64,000 bases of DNA from Bacteroidia bacterium (lineage in GTDB: Bacteria; Bacteroidota; Bacteroidia; Bacteroidales; VadinHA17), in NCBI GenBank assembly GCA_026391215.1, contig JAPLDX010000056.1, forward strand, positions 44,827 through 108,826, given 5' to 3'. The translations under genes were made by a program, and so were the position numbers. Below are positions 1,517 through 37,200 of the stretch, piece after piece; positions within the stretch are counted from its first letter, which is position 1; every line of letters begins with the position of its first letter. The notes beneath the pieces are model-generated. The model was not told the DNA's origin. It ran no database searches and saw only the letters and a program-made list of their open reading frames with translations.

Positions 1517-2533
1517 CTACTTCAGCCCTGATGCAAGAAGTCCGCACGCAGCTGAAATATCAGTTCCCCTTGATCTTCTGATTGATGCTGATATTCCCGA
1601 GATTACCAGCTCATGCTTAAAAAATAGCATCCTGTCGTCTGAAGACGAAGAGTTATTATCATCATTTACAGGATGATATGGCATCAGGTTGACCCTGATA
1701 CCCGATCCTCCCAGAATTTTTCTTAATCCTTCCAGATGTCTGACCGTATCATTGATATCATTTATCATCACATATGCTACGCTGAATCGCCTTTTCTTCT
1801 TCACTGTAAAATCCTTCATTATCCTTATGATCTCATGAACAGGGTATGAGGATTCAGCCGGGACAATTCTGATCCTTTCCTCTTCAAAAGGAGAATAGAG
1901 ACTAATCGTAAGGTTGCATTCCGATCTGTTCAGAAATTCTTTGATCGCGGGAGTGATCCCTACTGATGAGACCGTAATATTGCGGGGGCTAAATGACATG
2001 CCCCATTCGGATGTCATTATCTTGCAGGCCTTAAGGACATTCTCAAGGTTATCCATCGGTTCCCCCATTCCCATAAAAACAACATGGGTTACATTGCCGG
2101 CATCAGGAATACTGAGCACCTGATTTACAATATCTCCCGAAGAGAGGTTCCCATGAAAACCATATTTTGCAGTAACACAAAAAGGGCACCCCATCCTGCA
2201 ACCTGATTGTGTTGATATACAGATAGTTCTTCTCTTAACATCAGGGATCCAGACTGATTCAAATTTCTTTCCCTCAGGAGAAATGAAAAGATATTTTATT
2301 GATTTGTCAGCAGATACTTCAGATGTTGCAGGACCGTAGAATCCTGTCACAGCAATATCATCCAGGTAAACCTTGAGGCTTTTTGGTACCCCTCCTATTT
2401 GAGAAACATCAGCAATACGTTTCTTATATATGCTCGTGGCCACTTTAACAGCCTGGTTGTAATTATATCCTTCAGCTTGTACTAGCCCGTATATCTCATC
2501 AGGAGTCAGTCCGCAAAGGTTTTCTTTAATCAT
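1517..2533 (-). CDS. rlmN: RlmN/Cfr-family radical SAM 23S rRNA A2503 methyltransferase
   Basis: 338 aa. Radical SAM motif CRMGCPFC, upstream Cys in TICISTQSGC, MGMGEP, and C-terminal RGTDISAACGLLA (compare RlmN RGDDIDAACGQLA). Confidence 0.8.
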   Translation of the reverse strand: MIKENLCGLTPDEIYGLVQAEGYNYNQAVKVATSIYKKRIADVSQIGGVPKSLKVYLDDIAVTGFYGPATSEVSADKSIKYLFISPEGKKFESVWIPDVKRRTICISTQSGCRMGCPFCVTAKYGFHGNLSSGDIVNQVLSIPDAGNVTHVVFMGMGEPMDNLENVLKACKIMTSEWGMSFSPRNITVSSVGITPAIKEFLNRSECNLTISLYSPFEEERIRIVPAESSYPVHEIIRIMKDFTVKKKRRFSVAYVMINDINDTVRHLEGLRKILGGSGIRVNLMPYHPVNDDNNSSSSDDRMLFFKHELVISGISASIRRSRGTDISAACGLLASGLK

Positions 2534-2623
2534 AATAAGTATCTGAATACAAAAATAACCCGATTATCAATATCTTAGTATCTGGTTTTATTATTTACAA
2601 GCGAAGTAATATCATCATCAGAA

Positions 2624-3720: not shown

Positions 3721-4962
3721 ATGAACCGGATAACAATTTTACTAATATTTTCTCTTCTTGTGATTGCCTGCGGCAGCAGGGATAAAGGAAAAATTGATAA
3801 AAACTTAAATACCATGATAACAGACAGCACAAAGCAATACGGTTATAACAGGGATTTCCTGAAGAAACATGTAAATATTATTGAGCTGAAATCCGGCAAA
3901 TCCGCAATTGTCCTGATACCTGCCTGGCAGGGAAGAGTAATGACAAGCACAGCTGAAGGCGACCATGGCTTCAGTTTCGGATGGATCAACCGCGATCTGA
4001 TTGCATCAGGGAATATACAGCCTCACATCAATGCTTTTGGCGGAGAAGAGAGATTATGGCTTGGGCCTGAGGGGGGACAGTTTTCCCTGTTTTTTAAAAA
4101 AGGGACCCGGTTTGTCTACGATGACTGGCAAACCCCAGCTTATATGGATACAGATCCGTTTGAAATTATGAGCCAGACAGATTCTTCAGCATTGTTCGCC
4201 TGTTCTGTTGGAACAGAGAATTATGGCGGAACTCAGCTTAAATTCAGGATTGAAAGAAATGTCATTATTCTTTCAGCAGAAGAGATCATGAAACAAACAG
4301 GAATTGACATAACCGGGATTAATGGTGTTGCCTACAGGTCAGACAATAAAATAACAAATACAGGAGATAATGAGTGGATAAAGCAAACCGGCCTTATATC
4401 TGTCTGGATGCTTGGGATGTTTAATCCCTCGCCTGCTGTTGTGGTTGTTATCCCAAATAAACCCGGAAATGAAGAGATAATGGGACCTCTGGTCAATGAT
4501 GATTATTTCGGGAAGATCTCAGCAGACCGGCTTAAGGTCTCAGAAAATCATATTTATTTCAGAGCCGACGGCAAGAGCAGGGGAAAAATAGGGCTTCCTC
4601 CGCTAAGAGCAACAGGAACTATGGGCAGCTTTGATTCCGATAACAATATTCTTACCCTGCTTATCTGCAGGATGCCTGAAGGGAAAACAGAATATGTCAA
4701 TTCAGCATGGCAGATACAGGATGATCCTTATTCAGGAGATGCGCTTAACTCGTATAATGATGGCCCTCTTGAAGATGGTTCACAGATGGGACCATTCTAT
4801 GAACTGGAAACCTCCTCCCCTGCGGCAGCCCTGAAGGCAGGTGAAGAACTCACTCATGTCCAATATACTTTACATCTGACCGGCGACAGAAGAATCCTTG
4901 ACAATATATCCCAAAAGATATTAGGAGTTTCTCTGGATGAAATAGAGAATTCGTTCAATTAG
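3721..4962 (+). CDS. Conserved hypothetical lipoprotein, function unknown
   Basis: 413-aa ORF with signal peptide and lipobox (LLVIACGS). I recognise no catalytic motif. Confidence 0.55.
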   Translation: MNRITILLIFSLLVIACGSRDKGKIDKNLNTMITDSTKQYGYNRDFLKKHVNIIELKSGKSAIVLIPAWQGRVMTSTAEGDHGFSFGWINRDLIASGNIQPHINAFGGEERLWLGPEGGQFSLFFKKGTRFVYDDWQTPAYMDTDPFEIMSQTDSSALFACSVGTENYGGTQLKFRIERNVIILSAEEIMKQTGIDITGINGVAYRSDNKITNTGDNEWIKQTGLISVWMLGMFNPSPAVVVVIPNKPGNEEIMGPLVNDDYFGKISADRLKVSENHIYFRADGKSRGKIGLPPLRATGTMGSFDSDNNILTLLICRMPEGKTEYVNSAWQIQDDPYSGDALNSYNDGPLEDGSQMGPFYELETSSPAAALKAGEELTHVQYTLHLTGDRRILDNISQKILGVSLDEIENSFN

Positions 4963-7063
4963 GCATTAGTCCCTTGTTCTTGAGCAGCGGCTCAATAACT
5001 GGTTCACGCCCTCTGAAATTAACGTACATCTCTATAGGATCCATGATGCCGTTCTTCGCCAGGATATTTGTCCTGTAGGATTCTGCAGTAGTCTTATCGA
5101 AGATCCCCTTTTCCTTGAATGCCTCAAAAGCATCGTTATCAAGGACGGCAGCCCAGGTATAACTATAATAACCGGAATCATAACCATCCATGATATGAGT
5201 GAAATAAGTGCTCCTGTAACGTGAAATTATTTCAGGGATCAATCCGATTTTCGTGAGGTACTCCGTTTCAAACTTTTGAATATCAACAACAGCCGGGGCT
5301 TCAAGGGTATGATAAGCCATATCAAGCATTGAAGCAGCAAGAATCTCAACATTATCAAATCCCTGGTTAAAGTAACCGCTATTCCTTATTTTCCTGACAA
5401 GAGAAGCAGGTATCACTTCACCTGTCTGATAATGCCTTGCGTAAATGTTCAACATCTCTGGCTCGGTAGCCCAGTGTTCCATCAGCTGAGACGGAAGTTC
5501 GACAAAGTCCCATGCCACGAAAGTCTGGTTGTAGGTATTTCTGTTAAACATGGCATCCAGCGCATGACCGAATTCATGAAAGAGTGTTGAGACTTCTTCC
5601 AGGCTCAGAAGAGATGGTGCATCTCCGCTTTCAGGAGTAAAATTGAAGACTGTCGTTGCAATCGGAGTTATAGTTTTGCCATCGAGGATATGATGGGTGC
5701 GGTATGTTATGCACCAGGCTCCCTGCCGTTTGCTATCTCTCGGGAAGAAATCCATATACAGCACTCCTATATGGGAGCCGTCAGCATCCTTAACCTCAAA
5801 AGCCTGTGCATCAGGATGAGGTAATGGACAATCTGTCAAAGGATTAAAGACAATCCCGAAAAGCTTGTTGGCGCAGGTAAAAACACCTTCACGCACATTC
5901 TCAAGCTTAAAGTAAGGCCTTAACTCAGCATCATTAAGATTATATTTCTGTTTTCTTAGCTTCTCTGCATAGTACCACCAGTCTGAAGGTTCGAGCTTGA
6001 AATTGCCTCCCTCCTTGTCAATGATTCTCTGCATCTCCTTCAACTCATTTTTTGCAACAGGGACAGCTTTTTCCCAGAGGTTATTAAGAAGACTATATAC
6101 ATTCTCAGGTACTTTGGCCATTCTTGGTTCGAGTACTGTATGGGAATGCGTTTTATATCCAAGGACCTTTGCCCTCTCTGCTCTAAGCCTCACAATGTCT
6201 GAAAGCAGCTTATTGTTATCAAATTCGTTCCCGTTATTGCATCGGGTTATGTATGCGCTGTACAATTTTTGACGAAGCTCCCTTATATCTGAATAAGTCA
6301 GAAAAGGGAAAATGCTTGGCCGTTGAGTTGTGAAAACAAATAATCCTTCGCTTCCTTCTGCTTTTGCTACTTCTGCAGCTGCAGACATTACTGATTCTGG
6401 TAATCCTGAAAGACCATTACTGTCAACACGAAACCTGATGTTGTTCGTTTCATCCAGGACATTCTGACTGTATTTTACTGTAAGCACAGAGAGCTCCTGA
6501 TTAATCTTTTTCAGAGTATCCTGGTCCTGTTTGTTAAGATTTGCCCCATTCCTTACAAATCCTTTATAAAGATTTTCGAGGATGTACTTCTGTTCTGAAT
6601 CCAGGTTATATTTTGCCTGATTATCATATACATATTTTACTTTCCTGAAGAGATCAGGATTAAGTCTTATCTCATCATTGTAAGCAGATAATTTCGGAGA
6701 AATATCAACCTCAATGCTTTGCAGGGAATCACTGGTATTTGCATTAGCCTGACCATAAAATACCTGTGATACAGTTGTAAGGAGTTCACCGGTTTTATCC
6801 AGGGCTTCAATTGTATTTGAGAATGTCGGTTCTTCCTTATTGTTTATGATTTTTTCAATCTCTATTCTTCCTTCTGTCATCCCTTTTTCAAAAGCCGGTA
6901 TATAATGCCTGGCCATTATTCTTTCAAAGGGCGGAATATTATAAGGAGTATTGAACTCGCTGAAGAACGGGTTGGTTTTATCAACCTCAGGTTCATTTTT
7001 ACATGAAGATATTGCCATTACAAATAAAGCTGTGATAATGAATAATTTAACAAATTTTTTCAC
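4955..7063 (-). CDS. dcp: M3-family peptidyl-dipeptidase (Dcp-like zinc metallopeptidase), lipoprotein
   Basis: 702 aa. HEFGHALD zinc motif, M3 length and layout, N-terminal signal with Cys (AISSC). Confidence 0.85.
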   Translation of the reverse strand: MKKFVKLFIITALFVMAISSCKNEPEVDKTNPFFSEFNTPYNIPPFERIMARHYIPAFEKGMTEGRIEIEKIINNKEEPTFSNTIEALDKTGELLTTVSQVFYGQANANTSDSLQSIEVDISPKLSAYNDEIRLNPDLFRKVKYVYDNQAKYNLDSEQKYILENLYKGFVRNGANLNKQDQDTLKKINQELSVLTVKYSQNVLDETNNIRFRVDSNGLSGLPESVMSAAAEVAKAEGSEGLFVFTTQRPSIFPFLTYSDIRELRQKLYSAYITRCNNGNEFDNNKLLSDIVRLRAERAKVLGYKTHSHTVLEPRMAKVPENVYSLLNNLWEKAVPVAKNELKEMQRIIDKEGGNFKLEPSDWWYYAEKLRKQKYNLNDAELRPYFKLENVREGVFTCANKLFGIVFNPLTDCPLPHPDAQAFEVKDADGSHIGVLYMDFFPRDSKRQGAWCITYRTHHILDGKTITPIATTVFNFTPESGDAPSLLSLEEVSTLFHEFGHALDAMFNRNTYNQTFVAWDFVELPSQLMEHWATEPEMLNIYARHYQTGEVIPASLVRKIRNSGYFNQGFDNVEILAASMLDMAYHTLEAPAVVDIQKFETEYLTKIGLIPEIISRYRSTYFTHIMDGYDSGYYSYTWAAVLDNDAFEAFKEKGIFDKTTAESYRTNILAKNGIMDPIEMYVNFRGREPVIEPLLKNKGLMPN

Positions 7064-7985: not shown

Positions 7986-8098
7986 TTGGGGAGAAAACAA
8001 TCTCTTTTTTTCTGCAGACCGTAATTCTTTAAAGAAAATTGCCCAAATTTGCGCAGGTCCGTCTTCGTCCCGAGGACTCGGGGCTTCGGTGGATAAAT

Positions 8099-8187
8099 GG
8101 AGAGATGGCAGAGCGGTCGAATGCGGCGGTCTCGAAAACCGTTGTCCTGCTTACGCGGGACCGGGGGTTCGAATCCCCCTCTCTCCG
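8099..8187 (+). tRNA. tRNA-Ser (anticodon CGA)
   Basis: Hand-folded cloverleaf: acceptor GGAGAGA/TCTCTCC, anticodon loop CTCGAAA, long variable arm, T-arm GGGGG-TTCGAAT-CCCCC, discriminator G. CCA is not encoded. Confidence 0.9.
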
Positions 8188-8360
8188 CAAAACTTTAATG
8201 AACCCCGCGAACGCGGGGTTGTTTATTTGACCGAAGCCCCATTAAAAGCTTGCTTTTATAAGGGGCTGAAGGGAAAATAAATAGACTCGTAAGGGTTCAT
8301 TAAAACTTTGCTGGTATCCACCAGGGGATCACACCTGAACGGAGTGAGGGTGTAATCCCC
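8187..8360 (+). repeat. tRNA-Ser-linked GC-rich multi-hairpin element, copy A
   Basis: 19-nt arms at 8187-8205 and 8293-8311 pair at 17/19 positions and enclose hairpins at 8201-8220 and 8236-8266. A further hairpin lies at 8324-8360. The same architecture occurs at 36946-37114. Degenerate related hairpins continue to about 8480. Confidence 0.6.
8201..8228 (+). terminator. Intrinsic terminator-like hairpin after tRNA-Ser(CGA)
   Basis: AACCCCGCG-AA-CGCGGGGTT followed by GTTTATTT. Confidence 0.6.
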
Positions 8361-8599
8361 TTTTTATATTACGCCCCTTCAGGGCTAACAATCATTTATT
8401 AGCCTCCTGCCACCGGCGGTTGCCGGTGGTTATTCAAATTATGCCCTTTCAGGGCTTATTGTATTTTGGTTTTGCCAGCCTTCTCCATAGGATCGTGAGC
8501 CCCGGATGGTACCTCTTTTTTCAACATTTTATCAGAGTGGCTCCTTAGTTTAGAATAGCTTGTTATCTTCGTAAATTAATGTAATAAATAATCTAAAGC

Positions 8600-18448: not shown

Positions 18449-21400
18449 CTATTTAATAACAACAATTTTTGAAGTGCTGAATAGTTCATTATTGACCAGG
18501 ACTTCAATTGTATACGTCCCGCTTTGCAGCCCGGGCAGAGCAATTTCGCTATCAAGCTTAAAGTCCAGCTTCTCGGTCTGAAGTTCAATAACTTTGACCC
18601 CGGTCGAATTGTAAAATCTTATCAATGTTCTTCCGTAATCATCGCCGCTGATGCTCAAAGTTATATTCTTACTGGCCGGATTCGGATATACATATGCCGA
18701 CTTTGTTCCTGTAATATTAATTGCAGCTGAAGGATTCTGACATCCGTTTTTATCAGTTGCCCAAACATAATAACTTCCCGGCGATTTGGCAGTCACATAA
18801 TATTGCTTTGTTGCGCCGGAAATTGCAATTCCTCCCTTAAACCACTGCCAGCTTGTCAATGAATCACCGACGTTATAGCAGATAAGCACATTGTTCCATT
18901 TTGCCTTTATTTTAGGAACAACACCTTTTTTCACTTTTGCTGAAACTTCACTGCTGTAAGAACTGGCCATACCCACTGTATTCACGGCTGTTACACGGAA
19001 ATAATAAGTGACTCCGGGTGTTAATCCTGAAATTGTTTTGGCAACACTTGAGATTGTGGACGTGGAGTCAATTTTTGTAGTTGGACTGGCGGATGTTCCT
19101 CCAAAAATAATGTACCGGAGGAAATTCGCATCTGTGATTGCTGTCCAGCTCAGAGTAACCAGGTTATTGCATGAAGAAGCTGTAAGGCCGGCCGGTGTTG
19201 CCGGCGGATTCATCAGTGTTGTAACAGTAATTGTACCCGAATTCAAGCTTGCCCCATAACTATTGGATGCGCGGACCCTGTAGTAATAAACAGTGTTCGC
19301 TGTAAGTCCGGTCACACTATAGCTGGTTACATTTCCCACATATATGTTGCTAAAGCCAGGGAGGAATGATGAAAATGTATTGCTTGTCGAAACATCCAGC
19401 TCATAACTGTTGGCATTGGGTGAGCTGTTCCAGTTTGCAGTGAAGCTTGTCTGTACAACACTGGTTGCATCAGTTGCTACCGGTGCTGCAGGAATGCCAA
19501 GGGTAATGGTTTTAATCACGTTTGAATAGACGATGCTTGTTCCTCCTGCATTATATGCACGGAGCCTGTAATAGTAGATAGAGCCGGAAGTAAGTCCCGA
19601 GACATTTGCGCTTGTAATATTACCCACATCCTTACTATTGTAGCCTGTTACAATCGTTGTGAAAGTTGAGTCGGTTGCGATATCCAGCTTGTATCCTGTT
19701 GCCCCTGTTGAGGCTGACCAGTGAGAAGTGAAGCTGGTCTCAGCAATATTGGTTGCTGCACTGGCCACAGGAGCTGCCAGAAGGTTGAACTGTCCTTCAG
19801 CAGCCCATGCACCTCCGGCATAAGCCTGGTCAATTGCCTGCACGCTCCAGTAATATTTCCCCGGAGCCAGGTTGGTGATAGTGTATCCGTTACTCCTGAG
19901 TTCCGCGTTACCTATTGCCGGAATTCTACGGAATCCTGTGCTCACTGAGGCCATCGGACCAACGATACTGCTCCCTCCCGCTGCAGTTCCAATGCGGATG
20001 TTATATGTAAGTGTATTCTGCGGCGTTTTGCTGTCTGTTGCCTTGTTCCAGGTAAAGCTGACCTTGTTCACGCTGAGTGCAGATGCAAGCAGATTTGTCG
20101 GGGCAGATGGCACTGTATTTGCAACAATACTGTTGTTTTTGTATACTTTGGATGTATAAGATCCAGCTAATAAAATGTCCAGATCGCCATCATTATCATA
20201 ATCGCCCCAGGTTACAGAACCATAGTTTATTCCGGTTAAACCTGCATTTATGTCGGTAAAGACTCCTGCATCATTCTTATAGATCTTTGAATAACCGGAA
20301 CCTGTCAACAGAATGTCCAGGTCGCCGTCATTGTCATAATCGCCCCAGGTTACAGAACCATAGTTTATTCCGGTTAGACCTGCATTTATATCGGTAAAGA
20401 TTCCTGCATCATTTTTATAGATCTTTGAATAACCACTTCCGGTCAACAGGATATCAAGGTCGCCATCATTATCATAATCGCCCCATGCGACTGAACTGTT
20501 ACTTACTCCGGCTAAACCAGCATTGATATTGGTAAAAACTCCTGTATCATTCCTGTAAATTCTTGAATCACTGTTGCCTGTTAACAGAATATCCAGGTCA
20601 CCATCATTGTCATAATCCCCCCATGCAACTGAACTGGCGTTTACTCCGGTTAAACCGGCAGTGATATCGGTAAAAACTCCTGCATCATTCCTGTAGATTT
20701 TTGAAACGGAATTTGATCCGTCATAACCTGTTAATAAGATATCCAGATCGCCATCATTATCATAATCGCCCAAGGCAACTGAACCATCATATACTCCGGC
20801 TAAACCGGCATTTTTATCTGTGAAAACTCCCGCATCATTTTGGTATATATTTGATACATAAAACCAACCAGAGTTATAATATTCACCAGTCAACAGTATA
20901 TCCAGATCGCCGTCGTTATCATAGTCGCCCCAGGCAACAGAACTTCTGTATACTCCTTTTAAGCCGGCAATGATATCCGTGAAAACTCCTGCATCGTTCC
21001 GATATATTTTTGAGATATAATTTGATCCGTCATCCCCTGTTAATAATATATCCAGATCACCATCGCTGTCATAATCACCCCAGGCTACTGAGCCTCTATA
21101 AATTCCCGTTAAATTTAACCCAGTTTGTTCAGTAAAGGCAGGAACACTTATTTTCACTTCATTGGTAGCATATTCAATCGCATTTTTTGTCGACACACAT
21201 ACCACATAGTAAGTCCCGTATGAAGAAAAACCAGGCGTATATGTTGTCCCTGTGGCCCCTGTAATTGTTTGGTCATAAGGGCCGCCGCTCACAGTTGAAT
21301 ATTTCCACTGTCTCGATGTTGGAGTGCTTGATTCGGTCACTGTCAGTACAGTACCGTTCTGATTGATCAGCAGGGATTGATCAGTAACGGGACTTATTGA

Positions 21401-24400
21401 ATTTGAATAAGAAACAATGAATGAGCCTTCGGCAGCAAAAGCTGATCCTGCAAAATTATTGTCTATCGCCTGTACGCTCCAGTAATAGGTGCCTGCCGTG
21501 AGGCTTTTTATCGTCCAGGAATTGGCTTGAGCGGCCCCTCTCTGAACTATTCTCCTGTATCCTCCAGGCAGTGCTGCCATAGGAGACTTCCTGTTCACTG
21601 AGCCTGCAATGGTTCCAATATAAACATTATATGTGAGCCCGCTCTGTGCGGTTTTTGTGTCAGTTGATTTATTCCAGCTCAATGTTACTTTGTTTGCTCC
21701 AAGGCTTGCCTGCAGGTTCGTGGGCGCTGCAGGAACAGTATTTGCGGCAGATGTGTTATTCTTGTATACTTTCGTTACACTACCTGTAGAAATTAAATAA
21801 CCTGTAAGTAATACATCAAGATCTCCGTCATTGTCATAATCACCAAGGGTAACAGAAGAGTTATATACTGTTGCCAGTGAGTATCCTGTCAAAGTATTCG
21901 TAATATCAATTGTTGTATCACCGTCATTACGGTAAAACTTAGTAATATAAGAATCTAAGTTATCGTCCCAGCCGTTCAAAATAATATCCAGGTCCCCATC
22001 ATTATCAAGGTCACCCCAGGCTGCAGTGCTCTCATAAATCCCGATCAATCCAGCATTCATATCTGTAAAGACACCTGCATTATTCCTATAGATTTTTGAT
22101 ATGCCGCCTCCGGTAAGCAGGATATCGAGGTCACCATCGCTGTCATAATCTCCCCAGACCGCAGAACAATTGGTCACACCTGTCAAACCGGCATTGATAT
22201 TGGTGAAAATGCCATTGTCATTCCGATAAACCAGTGAATTCCAGCTGCCAACTAACAGGATATCCAGGTCGCCATCATTATCATAATCACCCCAGGCTGC
22301 AACTGAACCGCCGCCTGTTCCGGCTAAACCTCCATTGATATCTGTGAAAATTCCGGCATCGTTCCTGTAGATTCTCGAAATATCAGTTGATCCGTCATAG
22401 CCTGTTAATAAAATATCCAGGTCACCGTCATTATCATAATCGCCCCAGACAGCTGAACCATCCCAGATTCCGGTTAAACCTGCAGCTATATCTGTGAAAG
22501 TGCCGGCATCGTTCCTGTAGATTCTTGAAATGCCATTTGATCCTACATAACCCGTCAATAAAATATCCAGGTCACCGTCGTTATCATAATCACCCCATGC
22601 AGCAGAGCTCCTGTATACTCCGGTTAAACCGGCACTAATATCATTATAAACGCCAAGATCATTCCTGTAGATTTTTGATATCGCTCCTGAGCCTGAGTTT
22701 CCTGTAAGTAATATATCCAGGTCTCCGTCGTTATCATAATCAGCATACGCGACCGAACCTAAATCCACCCCGGTCAAAGCGATACCTGTTTGTTCTGCAA
22801 AGGCAGGAACACTTATTTTCACCTCATTGGAAGCATATTCAATCGCATTCTTTATTGAAGCACAAACCACATAGTAGGTCCCGAATGCCGCAAAATTAGG
22901 TGTGTAGGTCGTTCCTGTGGCCCCTGAAATTGACTGATCATAAGGACCTCCGCTAACAGTCGAATATTTCCACTGCCGCGATGTCGGTGTGCTTGACTCA
23001 GTGACTGTCAGTACAGTGCCGTTCTGATTTACTCCTAAAACCTGGTCGGCTACCGGAGCAATAGAATTCGAGAAGGCAACCGTAAATGTCCCTTCAGTTG
23101 CAAAGGCTGATCCCGCAAAATTATTGTCTATTGCCTGTACGCTCCAGTAATAAGTGCCTGCGGAGAGCCTGTTAATAGTCCAGGAATTGGTTTGAGTAGC
23201 CCCGCTCCGGACAATTCTCCTGTATCCGTCAGGCAGAGCTGCCATTGGAGATTTTTTGTTTACTGTGCCTGCAGTAGTTCCTATATAAAGATTATAAGTG
23301 AGCCCGTTCTGCGCAGTTTTTGTGTCTGTTGATTTGTTCCAGGAGAGCGTAACCTTGTTCGCTCCAAGACTTGCCTGAAGATTCGTGGGTGCTGCCGGAA
23401 CGGTATTTGCCGGTGATGTGTTATTCTTGTATACCTTTGAAACACGTCCGTAAGAGCTTAAATAACCGGCCAGCAAAACATCCAGATCCCCGTCGTTGTC
23501 ATAATCGCCAAGGGCCACAGAAGAGTTGTATACTGCTGCCAGTGAGTATCCTGTTAAAGTATTTGTGATATCAATGATTGTGTCAGTGGCATTACGGTAA
23601 AACTTAGTAATATAAGAACTTAATGTATTGTTATAGCCGTTTAATATAATATCAAGGTCTCCGTCATTATCAAGGTCGCCCCAGACCGCAGTGCTCTCAC
23701 TTACCCCGGTCAGGCCAGCATTGATTTCGGTGAAAATCCCTGCATTGTTGTTATAGACTTTTGATATGCCGCTTCCGGTAATCAGGATATCGAGGTCTCC
23801 ATCGCTGTCATAATCGCCCCATGCAGCAGAACCATCCGAGATCCCGGTTAAATCGGCAGTAATATCTGTGAAAATTCCTGCATCATTCCTATAGATTTTT
23901 GAAACGGAAATTGACCCGTTATAACCTGCTAATAAGATATCCAGGTCTCCATCATTATCATAATCACCCAATGCTACCGAACTTGAGCTGACTCCGGTTA
24001 AACCGGCATTGATATCTGTAAAAGTGCCTGCATCGTTCCTGTAAATCTTTGAAATATAATAGTCACCAGAATTCCAATAGTAACCTGTCAATAATATATC
24101 CAGGTCTCCATCATTATCATAGTCACCCCATGCGGCAGAACTCTCTACAACTCCTATCAAACCTGCGTTAATATCATTATAAACGCCTAGATCATTCCTG
24201 TAAACCCTTGATAAAAAGTCCGAATTCGAGTATCCGGTCAGCAAAATATCCAGGTCACCGTCACTGTCATAATCACCCCATACTACCGAACAATCATCTA
24301 ATCCTGGTAAAGTGATCCCTGTCTGTTCTGCAAAGGCAGGAACACTTATTTTCACCTCATTGGAAGCATATTCAATCGCATTCTTTATTGAAGCACAAAC

Positions 24401-27400
24401 TACATAGTAGGTCCCGAATGCTGCAAAATTAGGCGTATAGGTTGTCGCTGTGGCCCCTGAAATTGTCTGATCATAAGGACCTCCGCTTATTGTTGAATAC
24501 TTCCACTGCCTCGATGTCGGTGTGCTTGACTCGGTGACTGTCAGTACAGTGCCGTTCTGATTTACTCCTAAAACCTGATCGGCTACCGGAGCAATGGAAT
24601 TCGAGAAGGCAACTGTAAATGAGCCTTCAGTTGCAAAGGTTGATCCCGCAAAATTGTTGTCTAGCGCCTGTACACTCCAGTAATATGTACCAGCTGTAAG
24701 CTTTTTTATTGTCCAGGAATTGGTTTGAGTACCTCTCTGAACGATTCTCCGATATCCTCCGGGCAGGGCTGCCATGGGAGATTTTTTGTTCACCGAGCCT
24801 GCAGTGGTTCCTATATATACATTATAGGTGAGAGCATTCTGCGTGGTTTTTGTATCGGTCGATTTGTTCCAGCTTAATGTTACTTTGTTTGCTCCAAGAC
24901 TTGCCTGGAGATTTGTGGGTGCTGTCGGAACGGTATTCGCCGGTGATGTGTTATTCTTGTACACCTTTGAAACACGCCCGGAAGAGCTTAGGTAACCGGC
25001 CAGTAAAACATCCAGATCCCCGTCATTGTCATAATCTCCCAGGGCCACAGAAGATGAGTACACTGCTGCGAGGGAGTATCCTGTCAGGGCATTAGTGATA
25101 TCAATAGTCGTGTCTGTGTCATTACGGTAGATTTTTGCTATATAAGAACCTAAGATGTCGTCCCAACCGTTTAAAATAATATCAAGATCACCGTCATTAT
25201 CAAGGTCACCCCAGACAGAACTGCCATTATATATCCCTGGCAAATCTGCATTGATTTCGGTGAAAACGCCTGCGTTGTTTTTATAGATTTTTGATATTCC
25301 ACCTCCGGTAATCAGGATATCTAGGTCACCATCGCTGTCATAATCTCCCCAGGCAGCAGAGCCACCTGATATTCCCTGTAAACCTGCATTAATATCAGAA
25401 AAAATGCCATTGTCATTCCTGTATATTATTGAATTCCAGCTGCCCGTTAACAGGATATCCAGGTCGCTGTCATTGTCATAATCACCCCATACAACAGAAC
25501 TGCCGCTGACTCCGGATAAACCTGCATTGATATCTGTGAAAACTCCTGCATCGTTCCTGTAGATTTTTGAAACAGAATTTGATCCGTCATAACCCGTTAA
25601 TAAAATATCCAGGTCACCATCATTATCATAATCACCCCAGGCTACTGAACCTTCATAAACTCCGGTCAAACCTGCATTAATATCTGTAAAAGTGCCTGCA
25701 TCGTTCCTGTAAATCTTCGATATATAATTCAAGCCAGAGCTATAGTATCCACCTGTCAATAATAAATCCAGGTCGCCATCATTATCGTAATCACCCCATG
25801 CAGCAGCACTCCATTCAACTCCTGTTAAACCTGCGTTAATATCATTATAAACGCCGAGATCATTCCTGTAAATCCTGGAAATATATCCCGAATTCGAGTA
25901 TCCTGTCAGTAAAATATCCAGGTCGCCATCGTAATCATAATCACCCCATACTACCGAACAATTATCTACACCTGTTAAAGCGATCCCTTTCTGTTCTGCA
26001 AAGGCAGAAACACTTATTTTCACCTCATTGGTCGCATAATCAATCGCATTTTTTGACGATACACAAACCACATAGTAGGTACCGAATGCAGAGAAATTAG
26101 GCGTATAGGTTGTTGCTGTGGCTCCTGAAATTGACTGATCATAAGGGCCTCCGCTTACTGTCGAATACTTCCACTGCCTCGATGTCGGTGTGCTTGACTC
26201 AGTAACTGTCAGTAAAGCGCCGTTCTGATTTATTCCTAAAACCTGATCTGCCTCAGGAGCAATGGAATTTGTGAAGGCAATCGTAAATGAGCCTTCAGTT
26301 GCAAAGGCTGATCCTGAAAAATTGTTGTCTATCGCCTGTACGCTCCAGTAATATGTGGCTGCTGTAAGCTTTTTTATTGCCCATGAATTGTTTTGAGTAC
26401 CTCTTTGGACTATTCTCCTGTATCCTCCGGGAAGGGCTGCCATTGGGGATTTTTTGTTCACCGAGCCTGCAGTTGTTCCTATATATACATTATAGGTGAG
26501 TCCGTCCTGTGCGGTTTTTGAGTCTGTTGATTTGGTCCAGCTTAATGTCACCTTGTTCGATCCAAGACTTGCCTGGAGATTCGATGGAACCGCTGGAACA
26601 ACATTTGCGGTCAGAGAATTATTTTTATAGATCTTCGAAATATAACCTGAAGAGCCACTACCGGTCAGTATTATGTCAAGATCGCCGTCGTTATCATAAT
26701 CGCCCCAGGCTGCTGAGCTGTTAGAAGCTCCTTCAATCGGTTCCTCAATATCAGTAAAAACACCGCTGTCATTCCGGAATATTTTGGAATAACCGGCACC
26801 TGTCAGCAGAATATCCAGGTCACCATCATTATCATAGTCGCCCCAGGTTGCAGAACCATAGTTTATTTCAGCTAAACCTGCATCTATTCCGGTGAAGACT
26901 CCTGCATTGTTGTTATAGATCTTTGATACGCCGCTTCCGGTAAGCAGGATATCGAGGTCACCATCGCTATCATAATCTCCCCAGGCAGCAGAACCACCGT
27001 ATGTTCCTTCCAACCCTGCATTAATATCGGTGAAAATGCCATTGTCGTTCCGGTATATTTTTGAATTCCAGCCGCCTACTAACAGGATATCCAGGTCACC
27101 ATCGTTATCATAATCGCCCCATGTAACAGAACCATAACTGACTCCGGTTAAACCAGCATTGATATCGGTAAAAACGCCTGCATCGTTCCTGTAAACCTTT
27201 GAAATAATATGCCATTCAGTGTCATAATATTCACCAGTTAATAATATATCCAGATCACCGTCGTTGTCATAATCGCCCCAGGCTACTGAACTGCCGTTAA
27301 CTCCGGTCAAACCTGCACTGATATCCGTGAAAACACCTGCATCGTTCCTGTATATTATTGAAACATAATTTGATCCGCTATGGCCTGATAATAAAATATC

Positions 27401-30400
27401 CAGGTCGCCATCATTATCATAGTCGCCCCATGCGACAGAACTCCTGTACACTCCTGTTAAGCCAACACTGTCATCCGTGAAAACACCTGCATCGTTCCGG
27501 TATATTTTTGAGCTGTAACCTGATCCGTTATCACCAGCCAATAAAATATCCAGATCACCGTCGCTGTCATAATCACCCCAGGCTACAGAGCCTCTATTAA
27601 TTCCCGTTAAACTTATCCCTGAGGGTTCAACAAAGGCAGGAACACTTATTTTCACTTCATTGGTCGTATATTCAATTGCACTTTTTGTAGCCACACATAC
27701 TACATAGTAATTCCCAAATACTGAAAAATTAGGCGTGTAGGTTGTCCCTGTGGCCCCTGCAATTGTCTGATTATAGGGACCGCCGCTCACAGTGGAATAT
27801 TTCCATTGTCTCGATGCAGGGGTGCTTGATTCAGTCACTGTAAGTACAGAGCCGTTTTGATTTAGCTTCAATATCTGAGCCGTATCAGGAGAAATGGAAT
27901 TCGAGAAGACAACAGTAAATGAGCCCTCAGTTGCAAAAGCCGATCCTGCAAAATTATGGTCTATTGCCTGTACACTCCAGTAATATGTTCCTGCTGCAAG
28001 CTTTTTTGGCATCCAATTATTTCCCTGGATCAATCCTCTCTGGACAATTCTCCTGTATCCACCTGGCAGGGCTGCCATGGGAGATTTTTTGTTAATTGTT
28101 CCGGCAGCAGCGCCAATATAAAGATTATACGAAAGACCATCCTGGGGTGTTTGTATATCTGTTGTTTTGCTCCACGAAAGTGTTACTCCGCTTCCTGTAA
28201 CATTTGCAGCCAGGCCTGAAGGCTTAACAGGAGCGGTATTCAGTACAGAATTATTGTTTTTGTATATTTTTGATACAGGCCCTTCACCTGAGGTACCTGT
28301 TAGTAAAATATCCAGATCACCATCGTTATCGTAATCACCCCAGGCCGATGAACCTGTCTGAACCTTTTCTAAATACGAAAAAACCTCTGTAAAGACGTTA
28401 TTGTTGTTCTGTATGATTTTAGATATTAATCCGTCGTAGGTAGTACCGGTCACTAAAAAATCCAGGTCGCCGTCGTTGTCATAATCGCCCCAGTCTACTG
28501 AACCCTGATAAAAGTTAGGTAAGGAGTAATCTATTGAAGAAAAAGCCCCGGCATTATTGTTGAATATTCTCAAATTATAAACAGTTGACCATAAAACATC
28601 GAGATCACCGTCATTATCATAATCGCCCCAGGCAACTGAAGCGGCTGGATTGTTGTAGAATCCCGGATTAATACCGGTAAAAGAACCATTATCGTTCCTG
28701 TATATTCGTGAAAATCCATTAATTGCATCATTGTAACCAGCAAGCAAGATGTCAAGGTCGCCGTCATTATCATAATCGCCCCAGTCAACTGAACTTTCCC
28801 TTGCCCCGATCAGGCCGGCATTAATATCTGTAAAAATCCCCGCATCATTCCTGTATATTTGTGAGATACATAAGTTACTGGCATTATAGCCGGTCAACAG
28901 AATATCGAGGTCGCCGTCATTATCATAATCAGCCCATGCAACTGAGCCAATGTGCACTCCAGGTAAATAAACACTGATATTCTTAGTGAATGTACTATCG
29001 CCATTATTGTCCCAGATTTCAGAAACCGGACCAGCGTCTGAATAACCAGTTAATAAAATATCCAGGTACCCGTCATTATTATAATCACCCCATGCCACTG
29101 AACTTTCATCGACCCCTGGCATTAAAGTTCCTGCCAGCTCTGTAAATTTATTGCTGCCACCGTTCTTATAGATCTTGGAAACCCTGATGCCGGAACCTGT
29201 CCTGCCCGTCAATAAAATATCCTGATCCCCATCATTATCATAATCACCCCAGGCAACAGAACTATTATAGACACCTGTTAAGCTTATCCCTGTCTGTTCA
29301 ATAAAGTTTGTAACAATTATTTTTACCTGGTTGCTGGTATATGCCGTTCCACCAAATATCGATTCACATACAATATAATAAATGCCATCGGCCGGGAAGG
29401 ATGTAATACATGTGGTTCCGGTAGCACCTGCAATCGCCTGAGTGTATGGGCCACCGCTTACGGTTGAGTATTTCCACTGGCGCGAAGTGGGAGTGCTTGA
29501 TTCCGTCACAGTTAATGTCGCGCAGTTTTGATTTTTTAATATAGCCTGTTCACCAGTCGGAATAATTGAATTTGAAAAGGGAATCGTAAAAGTGCCTTCA
29601 GCAGCAAAAGCTGAACCGGCAAAACCGTAGTCGATAGCCTGTACACTCCAGTAGTACGTGGCTGCCGGCAATTTCTTCACGAAATATGTATTGGACTGAA
29701 TATTTCCCCTCCGGACTATTTTTCTGTATCCGCCCGGTACAACTGCCATTGGTGAACATTTGTTCACTGTACCAGTAGCGGTGCCTATATAGATGTTGTA
29801 CGAGAGACCGTCCTGCGATGTTTGAGTATCAGTTGATTTGCTCCATGTAAGAGTTGCTTTGCCACCCGTTACACTTGAACCAAGCCCTGAAGGTGATGCA
29901 GGAAAGGTATTTGCAACAGCACTGTTATTTTTATAGATCTTCGAATAACCACTGCCGGTCAGTAAAATATCAAGGTCGTTATCCTTGTCATAATCCCCCC
30001 ATGCAACGGAGCTGTAAGAAACACCGGTTAATCCTGCGCTGATATCGGTAAAAGTACCTGCATTGTTGTTGTAAACCTTAGAAATATCAGCAGAACCGGA
30101 ATATCCTGTAAGCAGAATATCCAGGTCGCCGTCGTTATCATAATCACCCCAGGCAGCAGAGCTATATCGTACTCCGGTTAAACCTGCATTAATATCCGTG
30201 AATGTGCCGCTGCTGTTATTGTATATCCTTGCATTATATCCGGAATCCCAGTTATACCCTGCCAACAGAATATCGAGATCGCCATCTTCATCATAATCGC
30301 CCCATGAAGCAGAACTGTAGGTTACACCCTCTAATCCGGCATTAATATCAGTGAAAATGCCACTGTCATTACGGTATATTTTTGCAATCGGGCCATCCAT

Positions 30401-36660: not shown

Positions 36661-37200
<540 letters not shown>

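Follow-up and report, generated by a model that had tools for sequence, protein, structure and literature searches.

Both tRNA-Ser genes of the window, as the whole 64,000-nt stretch of DNA analysed is called here, are followed directly on their 3′ side by the same multi-hairpin element of about 175 nt (Table 1). One copy (A) follows tRNA-Ser(CGA), and another (B) follows tRNA-Ser(GCT) on the opposite strand. CCA is not encoded in tRNA-Ser(CGA), and the last ~30 nt of the two tRNA genes are identical in the alignment. According to a Pfam scan, the genes neighbouring the copies encode a nucleoside symporter, an AAA_15 ATPase, caspase-domain proteins, a pfkB kinase and a GH95 protein; a gene for a T9SS cargo protein is also among those flanking the copies.

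A preliminary description of this DNA had reported five features after both tRNA-Ser genes, namely a long arm, a G+C-rich, terminator-like hairpin, a second hairpin (GCCCC..AAAGC-TT-GCTTT..GGGGC), the complementary arm and a last, clamped hairpin, and all five were recovered in place. The present analysis adds a third copy (C), a helix between the T-run and the A-run, the near-duplication, in inverted form, of the tRNA 3′ end with its trailer and terminator, and the location of the last hairpin on a repeat of the T-arm 3′ half.

In the folded element, the T-run and the A-run form an additional helix. Thus, the part that extends from arm to arm is a four-way junction. The two arms pair at 17 of 19 positions in copy A and at 19 of 19 in copy B, where all 51 model pairs are Watson-Crick. 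In the window copies, the right arm is separated from the distal hairpin by a pyrimidine-rich linker of 12 nt, and the 3′ arm of this hairpin in copy A is the T-arm 3′ half of the tRNA. The identity between the two copies is only ~75–80%.

The third copy, C, lies 135 nt past copy B and consists of an older right half only. Its 5′ boundary is exactly the centre of the palindrome (GCTTGCTTT), and it continues with the A-run, the small hairpin, the right arm, the linker, the hairpin and a degenerate repeat of the tRNA 3′ end. The spacer between copies B and C has no sequence kinship to the element.

Table 1. Positions of the tRNA-Ser genes and of the element copies in the window
Feature	Positions	Strand	Evidence or sequence
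tRNA-Ser(CGA)	8099-8188	+	ARAGORN, Rfam, alignment
Copy A, palindromic four-way junction	8187-8311	+	covariance-model score 120.8 bits
Copy A, left arm	8187-8205	+	
Copy A, terminator-like hairpin	8201-8220	+	
Copy A, T-run	8219-8228	+	
Copy A, core hairpin	8229-8273	+	apex CTTG at 8249-8252
Copy A, A-run	8274-8283	+	
Copy A, small hairpin	8286-8295	+	
Copy A, right arm	8293-8311	+	
Copy A, distal block	8312-8370	+	
Copy A, pyrimidine-rich linker of distal block	8312-8323	+	
Copy A, distal hairpin	8324-8360	+	GGGGATC-(23 nt)-AATCCCC
Copy A, distal T-run	8361-8370	+	
Copy C, older right half only	36670-36793	-	
Copy C, degenerate repeat of tRNA 3′ end	36685-36670	-	AACCCCCTCTCACCTG
Copy C, hairpin	36715-36680	-	
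Copy C, right arm	36746-36728	-	
Spacer between copies B and C	36794-36945	-	G/C-rich motifs including CCCTCTACTTCGTAAGGAGGGGG
Copy B, linker and hairpin	36946-36986	-	GGGGATC-GCGAGCGACGCGAGCA-CTCCCC
Copy B, palindromic four-way junction	36987-37114	-	covariance-model score 143.8 bits
Copy B, arms	37114-37096 and 37005-36987	-	
Copy B, terminator-like hairpin	37100-37080	-	
tRNA-Ser(GCT)	37113-37200	-	ARAGORN, Rfam

Occurrence beside tRNA-Ser genes and repeats of the tRNA end

An internal motif of 20 specified bases occurs three times in the window, against 0.00 occurrences expected, and nowhere away from the three copies. A search for this motif in 185,579 species, each represented by a single genome, and in the JGI metagenomes yielded three genome loci and four metagenome loci, all from uncultured Bacteroidia. 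Two of these loci (L005 and L007) match over the compared stretch, which leaves six distinct loci among the seven. The preliminary description had suggested looking for the element behind tRNA-Ser in related genomes, and this is where the full copies found by the motif lie: at all six distinct loci, the full element starts at the discriminator base of a tRNA-Ser gene. The anticodon is GCT at L001, L002, L003 and L005/L007, CGA at L006 and GGA at L004. The association with tRNA-Ser was not built into the search, as the motif is located ~60 nt past the tRNA.

Orthologous loci were also located through homologues of the two upstream genes and their contigs. Among these there are further full copies (L014–L016, L019 and L022–L024) and variants with a different core (L010, L011 and L017). 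The element is reduced in L009 and a short hybrid in L020; L018 has only a simple terminator, and the site in L021 is wholly empty. The element is found in more than 10 other genomes and at three tRNA-Ser isoacceptors, with about 12 independent copies in all, each of them from metagenome-assembled genomes (MAGs) or metagenome contigs. Its architecture is kept down to a neighbour-protein identity of 59% (T9SS protein, L022) or 76% (AAA15 protein, L019). This retention, together with an apex CTTG that is conserved over differing stems, hints at a function.

In reverse-complement alignments of copies A, B and L005, the right half nearly repeats, in inverted form, the segment that runs from the T-arm 3′ half to the T-run. 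The 7–8-nt acceptor strand and the interior of the terminator hairpin are exceptions. The outer stem begins exactly at the discriminator base, and the acceptor strand is left unpaired. In addition, direct repeats of the tRNA end follow several copies. For instance, a perfect direct repeat of 31 nt, which covers the tRNA 3′ end and trailer (AATCCCCCTCTCTCCGCCAAAGACAAAATAA), comes after the element at L005/L007 and is succeeded by a second, simple terminator hairpin with its T-run, and at L006 there is a perfect 14-nt direct repeat of the tRNA end (CCCCCTCTCTCCGC). Window copy C, L003 and L009 end in a degenerate repeat, CCCC(C)TCTCACCTG, and AATCCCC is the only remnant of the direct repeat after copy A. 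In L005, L006 and copy C, the direct repeat begins at the AAT of the T-loop, a canonical T-loop/T-stem sublocation.

The distal block is conserved across the 16 instances tabulated, and consists of the right arm, a pyrimidine-rich linker of 12–16 nt, GGGATC, 9–32 variable nt and AATCCC(C). The T-arm 3′ half of the repeat forms the 3′ arm of this last hairpin. This junction hairpin has 9–32 extra nt where a T-loop of 7 nt is expected, so that it is not a simple attR hybrid. Seen as a whole, the layout thus presents the tRNA-Ser 3′ segment three times: in direct orientation before the core hairpin, inverted after it, and once more in direct orientation beyond the junction hairpin. This direct-inverted-direct order is present in L005 and decayed in copies A and B, and the acceptor segment is not inverted.

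Gain, loss and relatives of the element

The element differs in presence and form among close relatives. At the CGA locus of L021 there is no element, and tRNA-Ser(CGA) directly joins a sequence that is found at ~8515 in the window. The T9SS-protein identity at this locus is 81%, and the JGI sample from which it comes (3300047182) also contains L008, a contig with 97% AAA15 identity. At the CGA locus of L020, a left arm like that of type 2 is joined to a right arm of type 1. The GCT locus of L009, from the sister sample 3300047193 (AAA15 identity 97%), corresponds to the B-to-C region of the window minus everything between two GTTTATTTT repeats, a deletion flanked by 9-nt direct repeats. Finally, only a simple terminator follows the tRNA at the GCT locus of L018. 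As it is absent or truncated in these closest relatives, the element is dispensable.

Older right halves lie distal to a full copy in the window (copy C), L001, L003 and L010, and the newest copy is always proximal to the tRNA. Copies group by type and not by tRNA locus or host relatedness. Window copy A, at a CGA locus, is closest to the copies at the GCT loci L001 (85%) and L002 (81%) and is 74% identical to L006, the other CGA-locus copy. The latter is 88% identical to window copy B and to L003. When element identity to copy B is set beside neighbour-protein identity, the values are 92% and 90% for L003, 73% and 86% for L014, 77% and 78% for L001, 52% and 76% for L019, and 80% and 68% for L005/L007. 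From these sequence comparisons, the L005/L007 copy, which bears the perfect repeat, looks like a recent acquisition.

Known families and a possible parent were searched for in several collections. At the gathering score, Rfam 15 recognised only tRNA, and at E<=10 the remaining matches were far under the gathering scores and mostly on the tRNA or the adjoining terminator hairpin. In a BLASTN comparison of copies B and C with 50,697 phage and 72,556 plasmid records, only the ~33-nt tRNA-Ser 3′ end was matched. Viral contigs were scanned three times, for the core motif, for that of the distal hairpin and for the tRNA end together with the trailer, and no copy of the element was found; two of the scans gave 0 matches, and the remaining one matched a jumbo-phage tRNA array without the element. 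No larger autonomous relative was found in the viral-contig, phage and plasmid collections searched. A Pfam scan of the neighbouring genes found no integrase or transposase adjoining the copies, but ordinary chromosomal genes only. Inside the units, of 170–430 nt, there is no credible ORF, only short frames that overlap the tRNA or the hairpins.

Other readings of the locus were also considered. The absence in L002 of the ~21 kb between copy C and bglX suggested an island at tRNA-Ser(GCT), which was rejected because the caspase and giant FG-GAP genes also follow the tRNA in L010–L016. An inversion of the intervening 28.7 kb mediated by copies A and B found no support, the gene order on both sides being as in relatives. 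The inner 66-nt palindrome was considered by itself as a MITE within a terminator, and motif scans never found this palindrome without the outer arms or off tRNA-Ser.

Folding and covariation

The copies fold far more stably than chance predicts, with z-scores as RNA of -7.3 for copy A and -12.4 for copy B, and of -5.3 to -11.6 as DNA on either strand. Folded as DNA, both strands are about equal in stability. The tRNA-sense strand is more stable than the antisense strand in 11 of 12 copies, an excess for which A·G mismatches and loops are probably responsible. The CTTG apex, read on the tRNA strand, is a CUUG tetraloop, which is kept over three closing stems (AAAG/CTTT, CAGG/CCTG and AGAA/TTCT), and the GTAA loop of the small hairpin is of the GNRA type on that strand only. 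The terminator-like hairpin and the T-run after it (GTTTATTTGA in copy A and GTTTATTTTA in copy B) agree with the terminator consensus. They lie between the two arms, inside the four-way structure, and account for only ~30 nt of the element.

For covariation, a covariance model was built from 12 copies, and 11 full copies from 10 genomes were realigned to it, since the MAFFT alignment of such divergent copies was poor. Realignment to the model biases counts toward the structure, and controls with slid partners and shuffles offset this bias only in part; with this qualification, 93.5% of the cells are paired in the 11 copies, against 78.8% in shuffles and 41–56% with slid partners. Changes on both sides occur in 29 of the 51 pairs, and none of 500 shuffles reached any of the observed covariation measures. 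Covariation is strong in all helices. The outer arms come in at least six versions, each complementary within itself but incompatible with the others, such as CTTTAATGA, CCAAAATAA, CAATACAAA, CACCAAATTACT, CCAAAGCAAT and CCGTATCACT. The preliminary description had noted five differing positions in the long arms of the two window copies, four of them compensated, as well as two covarying pairs in the inner stem of the second hairpin. Both observations are correct, and the covariance model, a check that it had proposed, extends the covariation beyond these two copies.

Over 549 cells, there are 512 Watson-Crick pairs (93%), 7 G·U and 6 A·C. As G·U is no commoner than A·C, the signature of a strand-specific RNA, in which G·U is tolerated and A·C avoided, is not observed. 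Many double changes are transversion swaps (A-T to T-A, C-G to G-C), which are impossible through a wobble intermediate. This Watson-Crick-only covariation is the pattern of a DNA palindrome or of mutually copied arms, and not that of selection on one strand of RNA. Template switching is known to renew pairing in one step, stems being created and repaired in single events (PMC8794818, PMC7202029). Since the arms are inverted copies of each other, compensatory change alone is no proof here of selection for structure. Thus, of the earlier claim that pairing kept while sequence changes reveals a selected structure, the first part stands, and compensation does not prove the second. The co-transcribed structured RNA that had also been proposed lacks its usual signature, given these G·U and A·C counts, the internal terminator and the lack of an Rfam match.

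Explanations and comparison with known systems

Among the three explanations offered earlier, the palindromic element at tRNA-Ser 3′ flanks and the attachment-site-like origin are favoured over the RNA by the tRNA-end direct repeats, the empty or reduced sites in close relatives, the tandem partial copies and a similarity that is independent of locus and host. With middling confidence, the element is best explained as a non-autonomous, non-coding palindromic cassette that recombines at the DNA level into tRNA-Ser 3′ ends, and not as a stand-alone RNA gene. The explanation builds on directly observed features: how the element is built, its restriction to tRNA-Ser, the tRNA-end repeats in direct and inverted orientation, its presence in some relatives and absence from others, the remnants stacked behind full copies, and covariation of the Watson-Crick type only. 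Gain and loss, stacking and incongruence suggest that the cassette moves as a whole unit. Such a unit would start with a replacement tRNA 3′ end, from the 3′ side of the T-loop, with its trailer, terminator hairpin and T-run. Next would come the conserved core hairpin, and after it the T-run, hairpin, trailer and T-arm half a second time, as an inverted near-copy. The unit would close with the first part of another direct copy of the tRNA 3′ end, which would be the displaced original.

Because it is bracketed by direct copies of a sequence common to all tRNA-Ser isoacceptors, the unit could enter any tRNA-Ser gene. Entry might depend on a tRNA-Ser-specific integrase acting in trans, or on plain homology and template switching, which would suffice as all tRNA-Ser isoacceptors share the last ~30 nt. 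Fresh insertions would adjoin the tRNA, and older copies would be pushed distally and then decay. The palindrome would bring the direct repeats together so that the cassette is removed, which would explain the frequent clean losses. Finally, hairpin-dependent recombination or template-switch homogenisation may act on the DNA to keep the arms complementary. Several observations count against the cassette. There is no integrase, transposase or plausible ORF in or beside any copy and no larger autonomous relative in the collections searched, the distal hairpin is not a clean attR, and the persistence of the architecture and the CTTG apex hint at a function. The inverted copy also skips the acceptor strand, a detail that would be relevant only in a transcript.

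A bolder and rather improbable version of the cassette would make it the smallest kind of integrative element, of ~170–190 nt and almost fully self-complementary. It might take the form of a single-stranded dumbbell, whose ends would be the core hairpin and the T-arm-like hairpin. Its insertion into tRNA-Ser genes, on the side of the T-loop, would be the work of a recombinase that recognises hairpins, by the logic of integron attC and CTXphi, or else it would home without a dedicated enzyme by means of the tRNA-end repeats. The tRNA 3′ end and terminator would be replaced at each landing, and in both cases the element would represent a new class of tRNA-targeted selfish DNA.

The CUUG tetraloop that persists over three different closing stems, the GTAA loop that is GNRA on the tRNA strand only and the greater stability of the sense strand would be expected of a functional structured 3′-trailer RNA. 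In such an RNA, the tRNA-Ser transcript would read through the first hairpin and the trailer would fold into the four-way junction and the distal hairpin, with a role in tRNA-Ser 3′ processing, stability or termination, or as the source of a trailer-derived small RNA. The strong covariation throughout the helices would then mirror selection on the RNA fold. An outer stem that starts from the discriminator base with the acceptor strand unpaired, and an architecture retained at 59–76% neighbour-protein identity, also agree with it. Nevertheless, this explanation is unlikely. G·U does not exceed A·C where 93% of the pairs are Watson-Crick, a canonical terminator-like hairpin with its T-run stands between the arms, and Rfam gives no match even at E<=10. 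Besides, the element is missing or truncated in the closest relatives (L021, L020, L009 and L018), and an RNA gene leaves the tRNA-end repeats and the tandem stacking unexplained.

Some of these features can be accounted for without any mobile unit, if template switching at the palindromic T-arm and terminator produced a small, local direct-inverted-direct duplication, of the tandem-inversion-duplication type, that covers the tRNA 3′ end with its trailer and terminator. The product would be inherited vertically and remodelled by deletions, with occasional ectopic gene conversion between tRNA-Ser paralogues, and further switches would keep the pairing. The layout of L005, decayed in the window, has this form, and both the core apex and the T-arm-like hairpin, where its junctions fall, are palindromic. 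The break of copy C coincides exactly with the centre of the palindrome, and L009 is a deletion between 9-nt direct repeats. Likewise, Watson-Crick-only covariation with many transversion double changes is what template switching gives (PMC8794818; PMC7202029), and no recombinase was found. By contrast, three tRNA-Ser loci that are not orthologous have the same core hairpin sequence, as do hosts whose neighbour proteins are 68% identical. Separate local events would not give rise to this core again, so that some transfer of the whole unit is required. Local switching also fits poorly with a newest copy that is always tRNA-proximal and with an acceptor segment that is replaced, and not copied, in the inverted copy, and it too is judged to have only a small chance of being correct. 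Chance resemblance or plain segmental duplication of one tRNA-Ser locus might be thought of because the window copies are only ~75–80% identical and tRNA-Ser 3′ ends are alike anyway. It is extremely improbable in view of the three motif occurrences against 0.00 expected, the presence in more than 10 other genomes at three isoacceptors and the covariation statistics, all of which refute it. Moreover, the upstream tRNA bodies differ, as those of different isoacceptors should.

If the cassette does move as a unit, the logic of tRNA-site integration (regenerate, displace, stack) would work on a non-coding element of <200 nt, and such elements could rewrite both the 3′ end and the terminator in all the isoacceptors that serve one amino acid. 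A warning applies as well. Compensatory covariation as strong as this commonly passes for proof of a functional RNA, but here it arises in a palindrome of DNA, the two arms being inverted copies of each other. Counts of G·U versus A·C and presence or absence in relatives are therefore needed before a new RNA motif is named. For annotation, the cassette would account for the unusually long, repeat-filled spacers after tRNA-Ser in these uncultured Bacteroidia.

REP/BIME sequences are palindromes of 20–40 nt with tens to hundreds of intergenic copies and an associated RAYT transposase. Like them and like MITEs, the cassette is small, non-coding, rich in inverted repeats and strain-polymorphic, and has subfamilies with co-varying arms. 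Unlike them, it is not dispersed, every copy found being at a tRNA-Ser 3′ end. It also lacks the short target-site duplications of fixed length of a MITE, as the flanking repeat is 14–31 nt of tRNA sequence. Its left arm is the tRNA trailer itself, and no link to a transposase or RAYT is evident.

Folded single-strand att sites, which are imperfect palindromes, were reportedly linked to site-specific insertion in 2005 by Bouvier and by Val. With the integron attC and the CTXphi attP, the cassette shares a conserved structure without conserved sequence, Watson-Crick-only covariation and an imperfect palindrome of ~60–140 nt, a likeness drawn from sequence only. It differs from them in its target, a tRNA gene, and in having neither a GTTRRRY-type core nor an integron integrase: on inspection of the copies, the outer stem has no GTTRRRY box at its base, the neighbours scanned against Pfam include no integrase, and there is no evident dif-like site.

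For tandem inversion duplications, there is a model from Salmonella (TID). These and quasipalindromes resemble the cassette in their direct-inverted-direct order, palindromic junctions, later asymmetric deletions and arms homogenised in single events (PMC8794818, PMC7202029). In contrast, the scale here is ~60 nt and not kilobases, and the same junction sequence recurs at three paralogous loci and in divergent hosts. Intrinsic (bidirectional) terminators after tRNA genes are similar in that the first hairpin and T-run fit their consensus, the A-rich trailer pairs with the T-rich tail, and the L009 and L018 loci have just a long or simple terminator. However, the window copies carry ~75 extra nt (core hairpin, A-run and second hairpin), a conserved linker and a T-arm-like hairpin, none of which any terminator needs.

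Among islands at tRNA genes, CIMEs, which are cis-mobilisable elements of streptococcal ICEs, have no recombinase on board. The accepted mark of integration at tRNA sites is a regenerated tRNA with a displaced 3′ fragment, and the T-loop/T-stem is the commonest attP class (PMC4383910); crossover in the T-loop has also been described (PMC1762012). As in Islander-type islands and CIMEs, sequence borne by the cassette regenerates an intact tRNA and a displaced direct 3′ fragment lies at the far end. The block of identity starts from the T-loop/T-stem, accretion is in tandem with the newest copy beside the tRNA, and no recombinase is on board, the integrase gene of Islander-type islands being absent from the element. 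Differences are that the distal hairpin is not a clean attR, that neither a parent nor an integrase was found in the collections searched, and that the cassette unit, of ~170–190 nt, falls short of known islands and CIMEs in size by one to two orders of magnitude and is almost wholly self-complementary. What differs from known tRNA-site integration is thus the scale, <200 nt without a gene, and the near-complete self-complementarity.

Copies A and B and the interval between them

Together with the adjoining tRNA 3′ ends, copies A and B, which follow tRNA-Ser(CGA) and tRNA-Ser(GCT), respectively, form an inverted repeat (8160-8281 versus 37019-37141) that flanks 28.7 kb. No inversion of this 28.7-kb interval is evident, as gene order on both sides agrees with that of relatives. 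A 4189-aa ORF lies within the interval and contains dozens of internal repeats of ~138-159 nt and ~1.6 kb; its homologues possess FG-GAP-type repeats as well as a T9SS sorting tail. This ORF is kept 3′ of tRNA-Ser(GCT) in relatives but is missing from the related locus L002, where a BglX homologue directly follows the element.

A tRNA-Ser(GCT) is also found among the 13 tRNAs of an array on a viral contig of jumbo-phage size (L025). Its 3′ end plus CAAAG matches host-type sequence, and the element is not present at this 3′ end.

Features in the window and in compared loci
Feature	Location	Strand	Context
Hairpin TCCnCCTTCGCnAAGGCTnnGGnGGA	window 8054-8096		5′ leader of tRNA-Ser
GCCCyTTCAGGGC hairpin, two copies	window 8372-8386, 8443-8457		
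4189-aa ORF	window 18449-31018	-	
CACCCCCCAGCCCCCTCC ... CCCTCTACTTCGTAAGGAGGGGG, G/C-rich	window ~36835-36930	-	B-C spacer
Tandem 69-nt units	L005 12069-12208; L007 6850-6990		upstream of tRNA-Ser(GCT)
Seven tandem ~96-nt units	L019 ~4860-5480		upstream of tRNA-Ser(GCT)
tRNA-Ser(GCT)	L025, region 2423-2610		IMGVR_UViG_3300028888_000045, 335 kb

Repeats beyond the copies

Both small GCCCyTTCAGGGC hairpins fall within the ~240 nt that separate copy A from the symporter gene, and the empty CGA site (L021) lacks the entire 8188-~8515 stretch of the window, these hairpins included. The spacer between copy B and the older right half, copy C, is filled by the G/C-rich motif, which is found again past the distal hairpin of the element in L003, L004, and L014 and may represent one more small repeat family.

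Sequences 5′ of tRNA-Ser

The 5′ leaders of tRNA-Ser genes carry a second small hairpin family, TCCnCCTTCGCnAAGGCTnnGGnGGA, whose stems covary and which also lies immediately 5′ of tRNA-Ser in L010, L011, L014, L017, L020, L021, and L022. This leader hairpin is also an insertion polymorphism, since it is present in L014 and absent from L015 and L016, even though the AAA_15 proteins encoded in these loci are identical.

Tandem units occur in other related loci. In L005 and L007, each unit begins with the first 14 nt of the tRNA (GGAGAGATGGGTGA), followed by the CCCTCCTTCGCCAAGGCTACGGAGGGCGAAGG motif. In L019, each unit copies tRNA nt 1-48 in disrupted form, with the hairpin TCCCGCTTTTTAAGGAAAAAAGCGGGAC in place of the anticodon loop, and the array looks like a 5′-side counterpart of the element's 3′ stacking.
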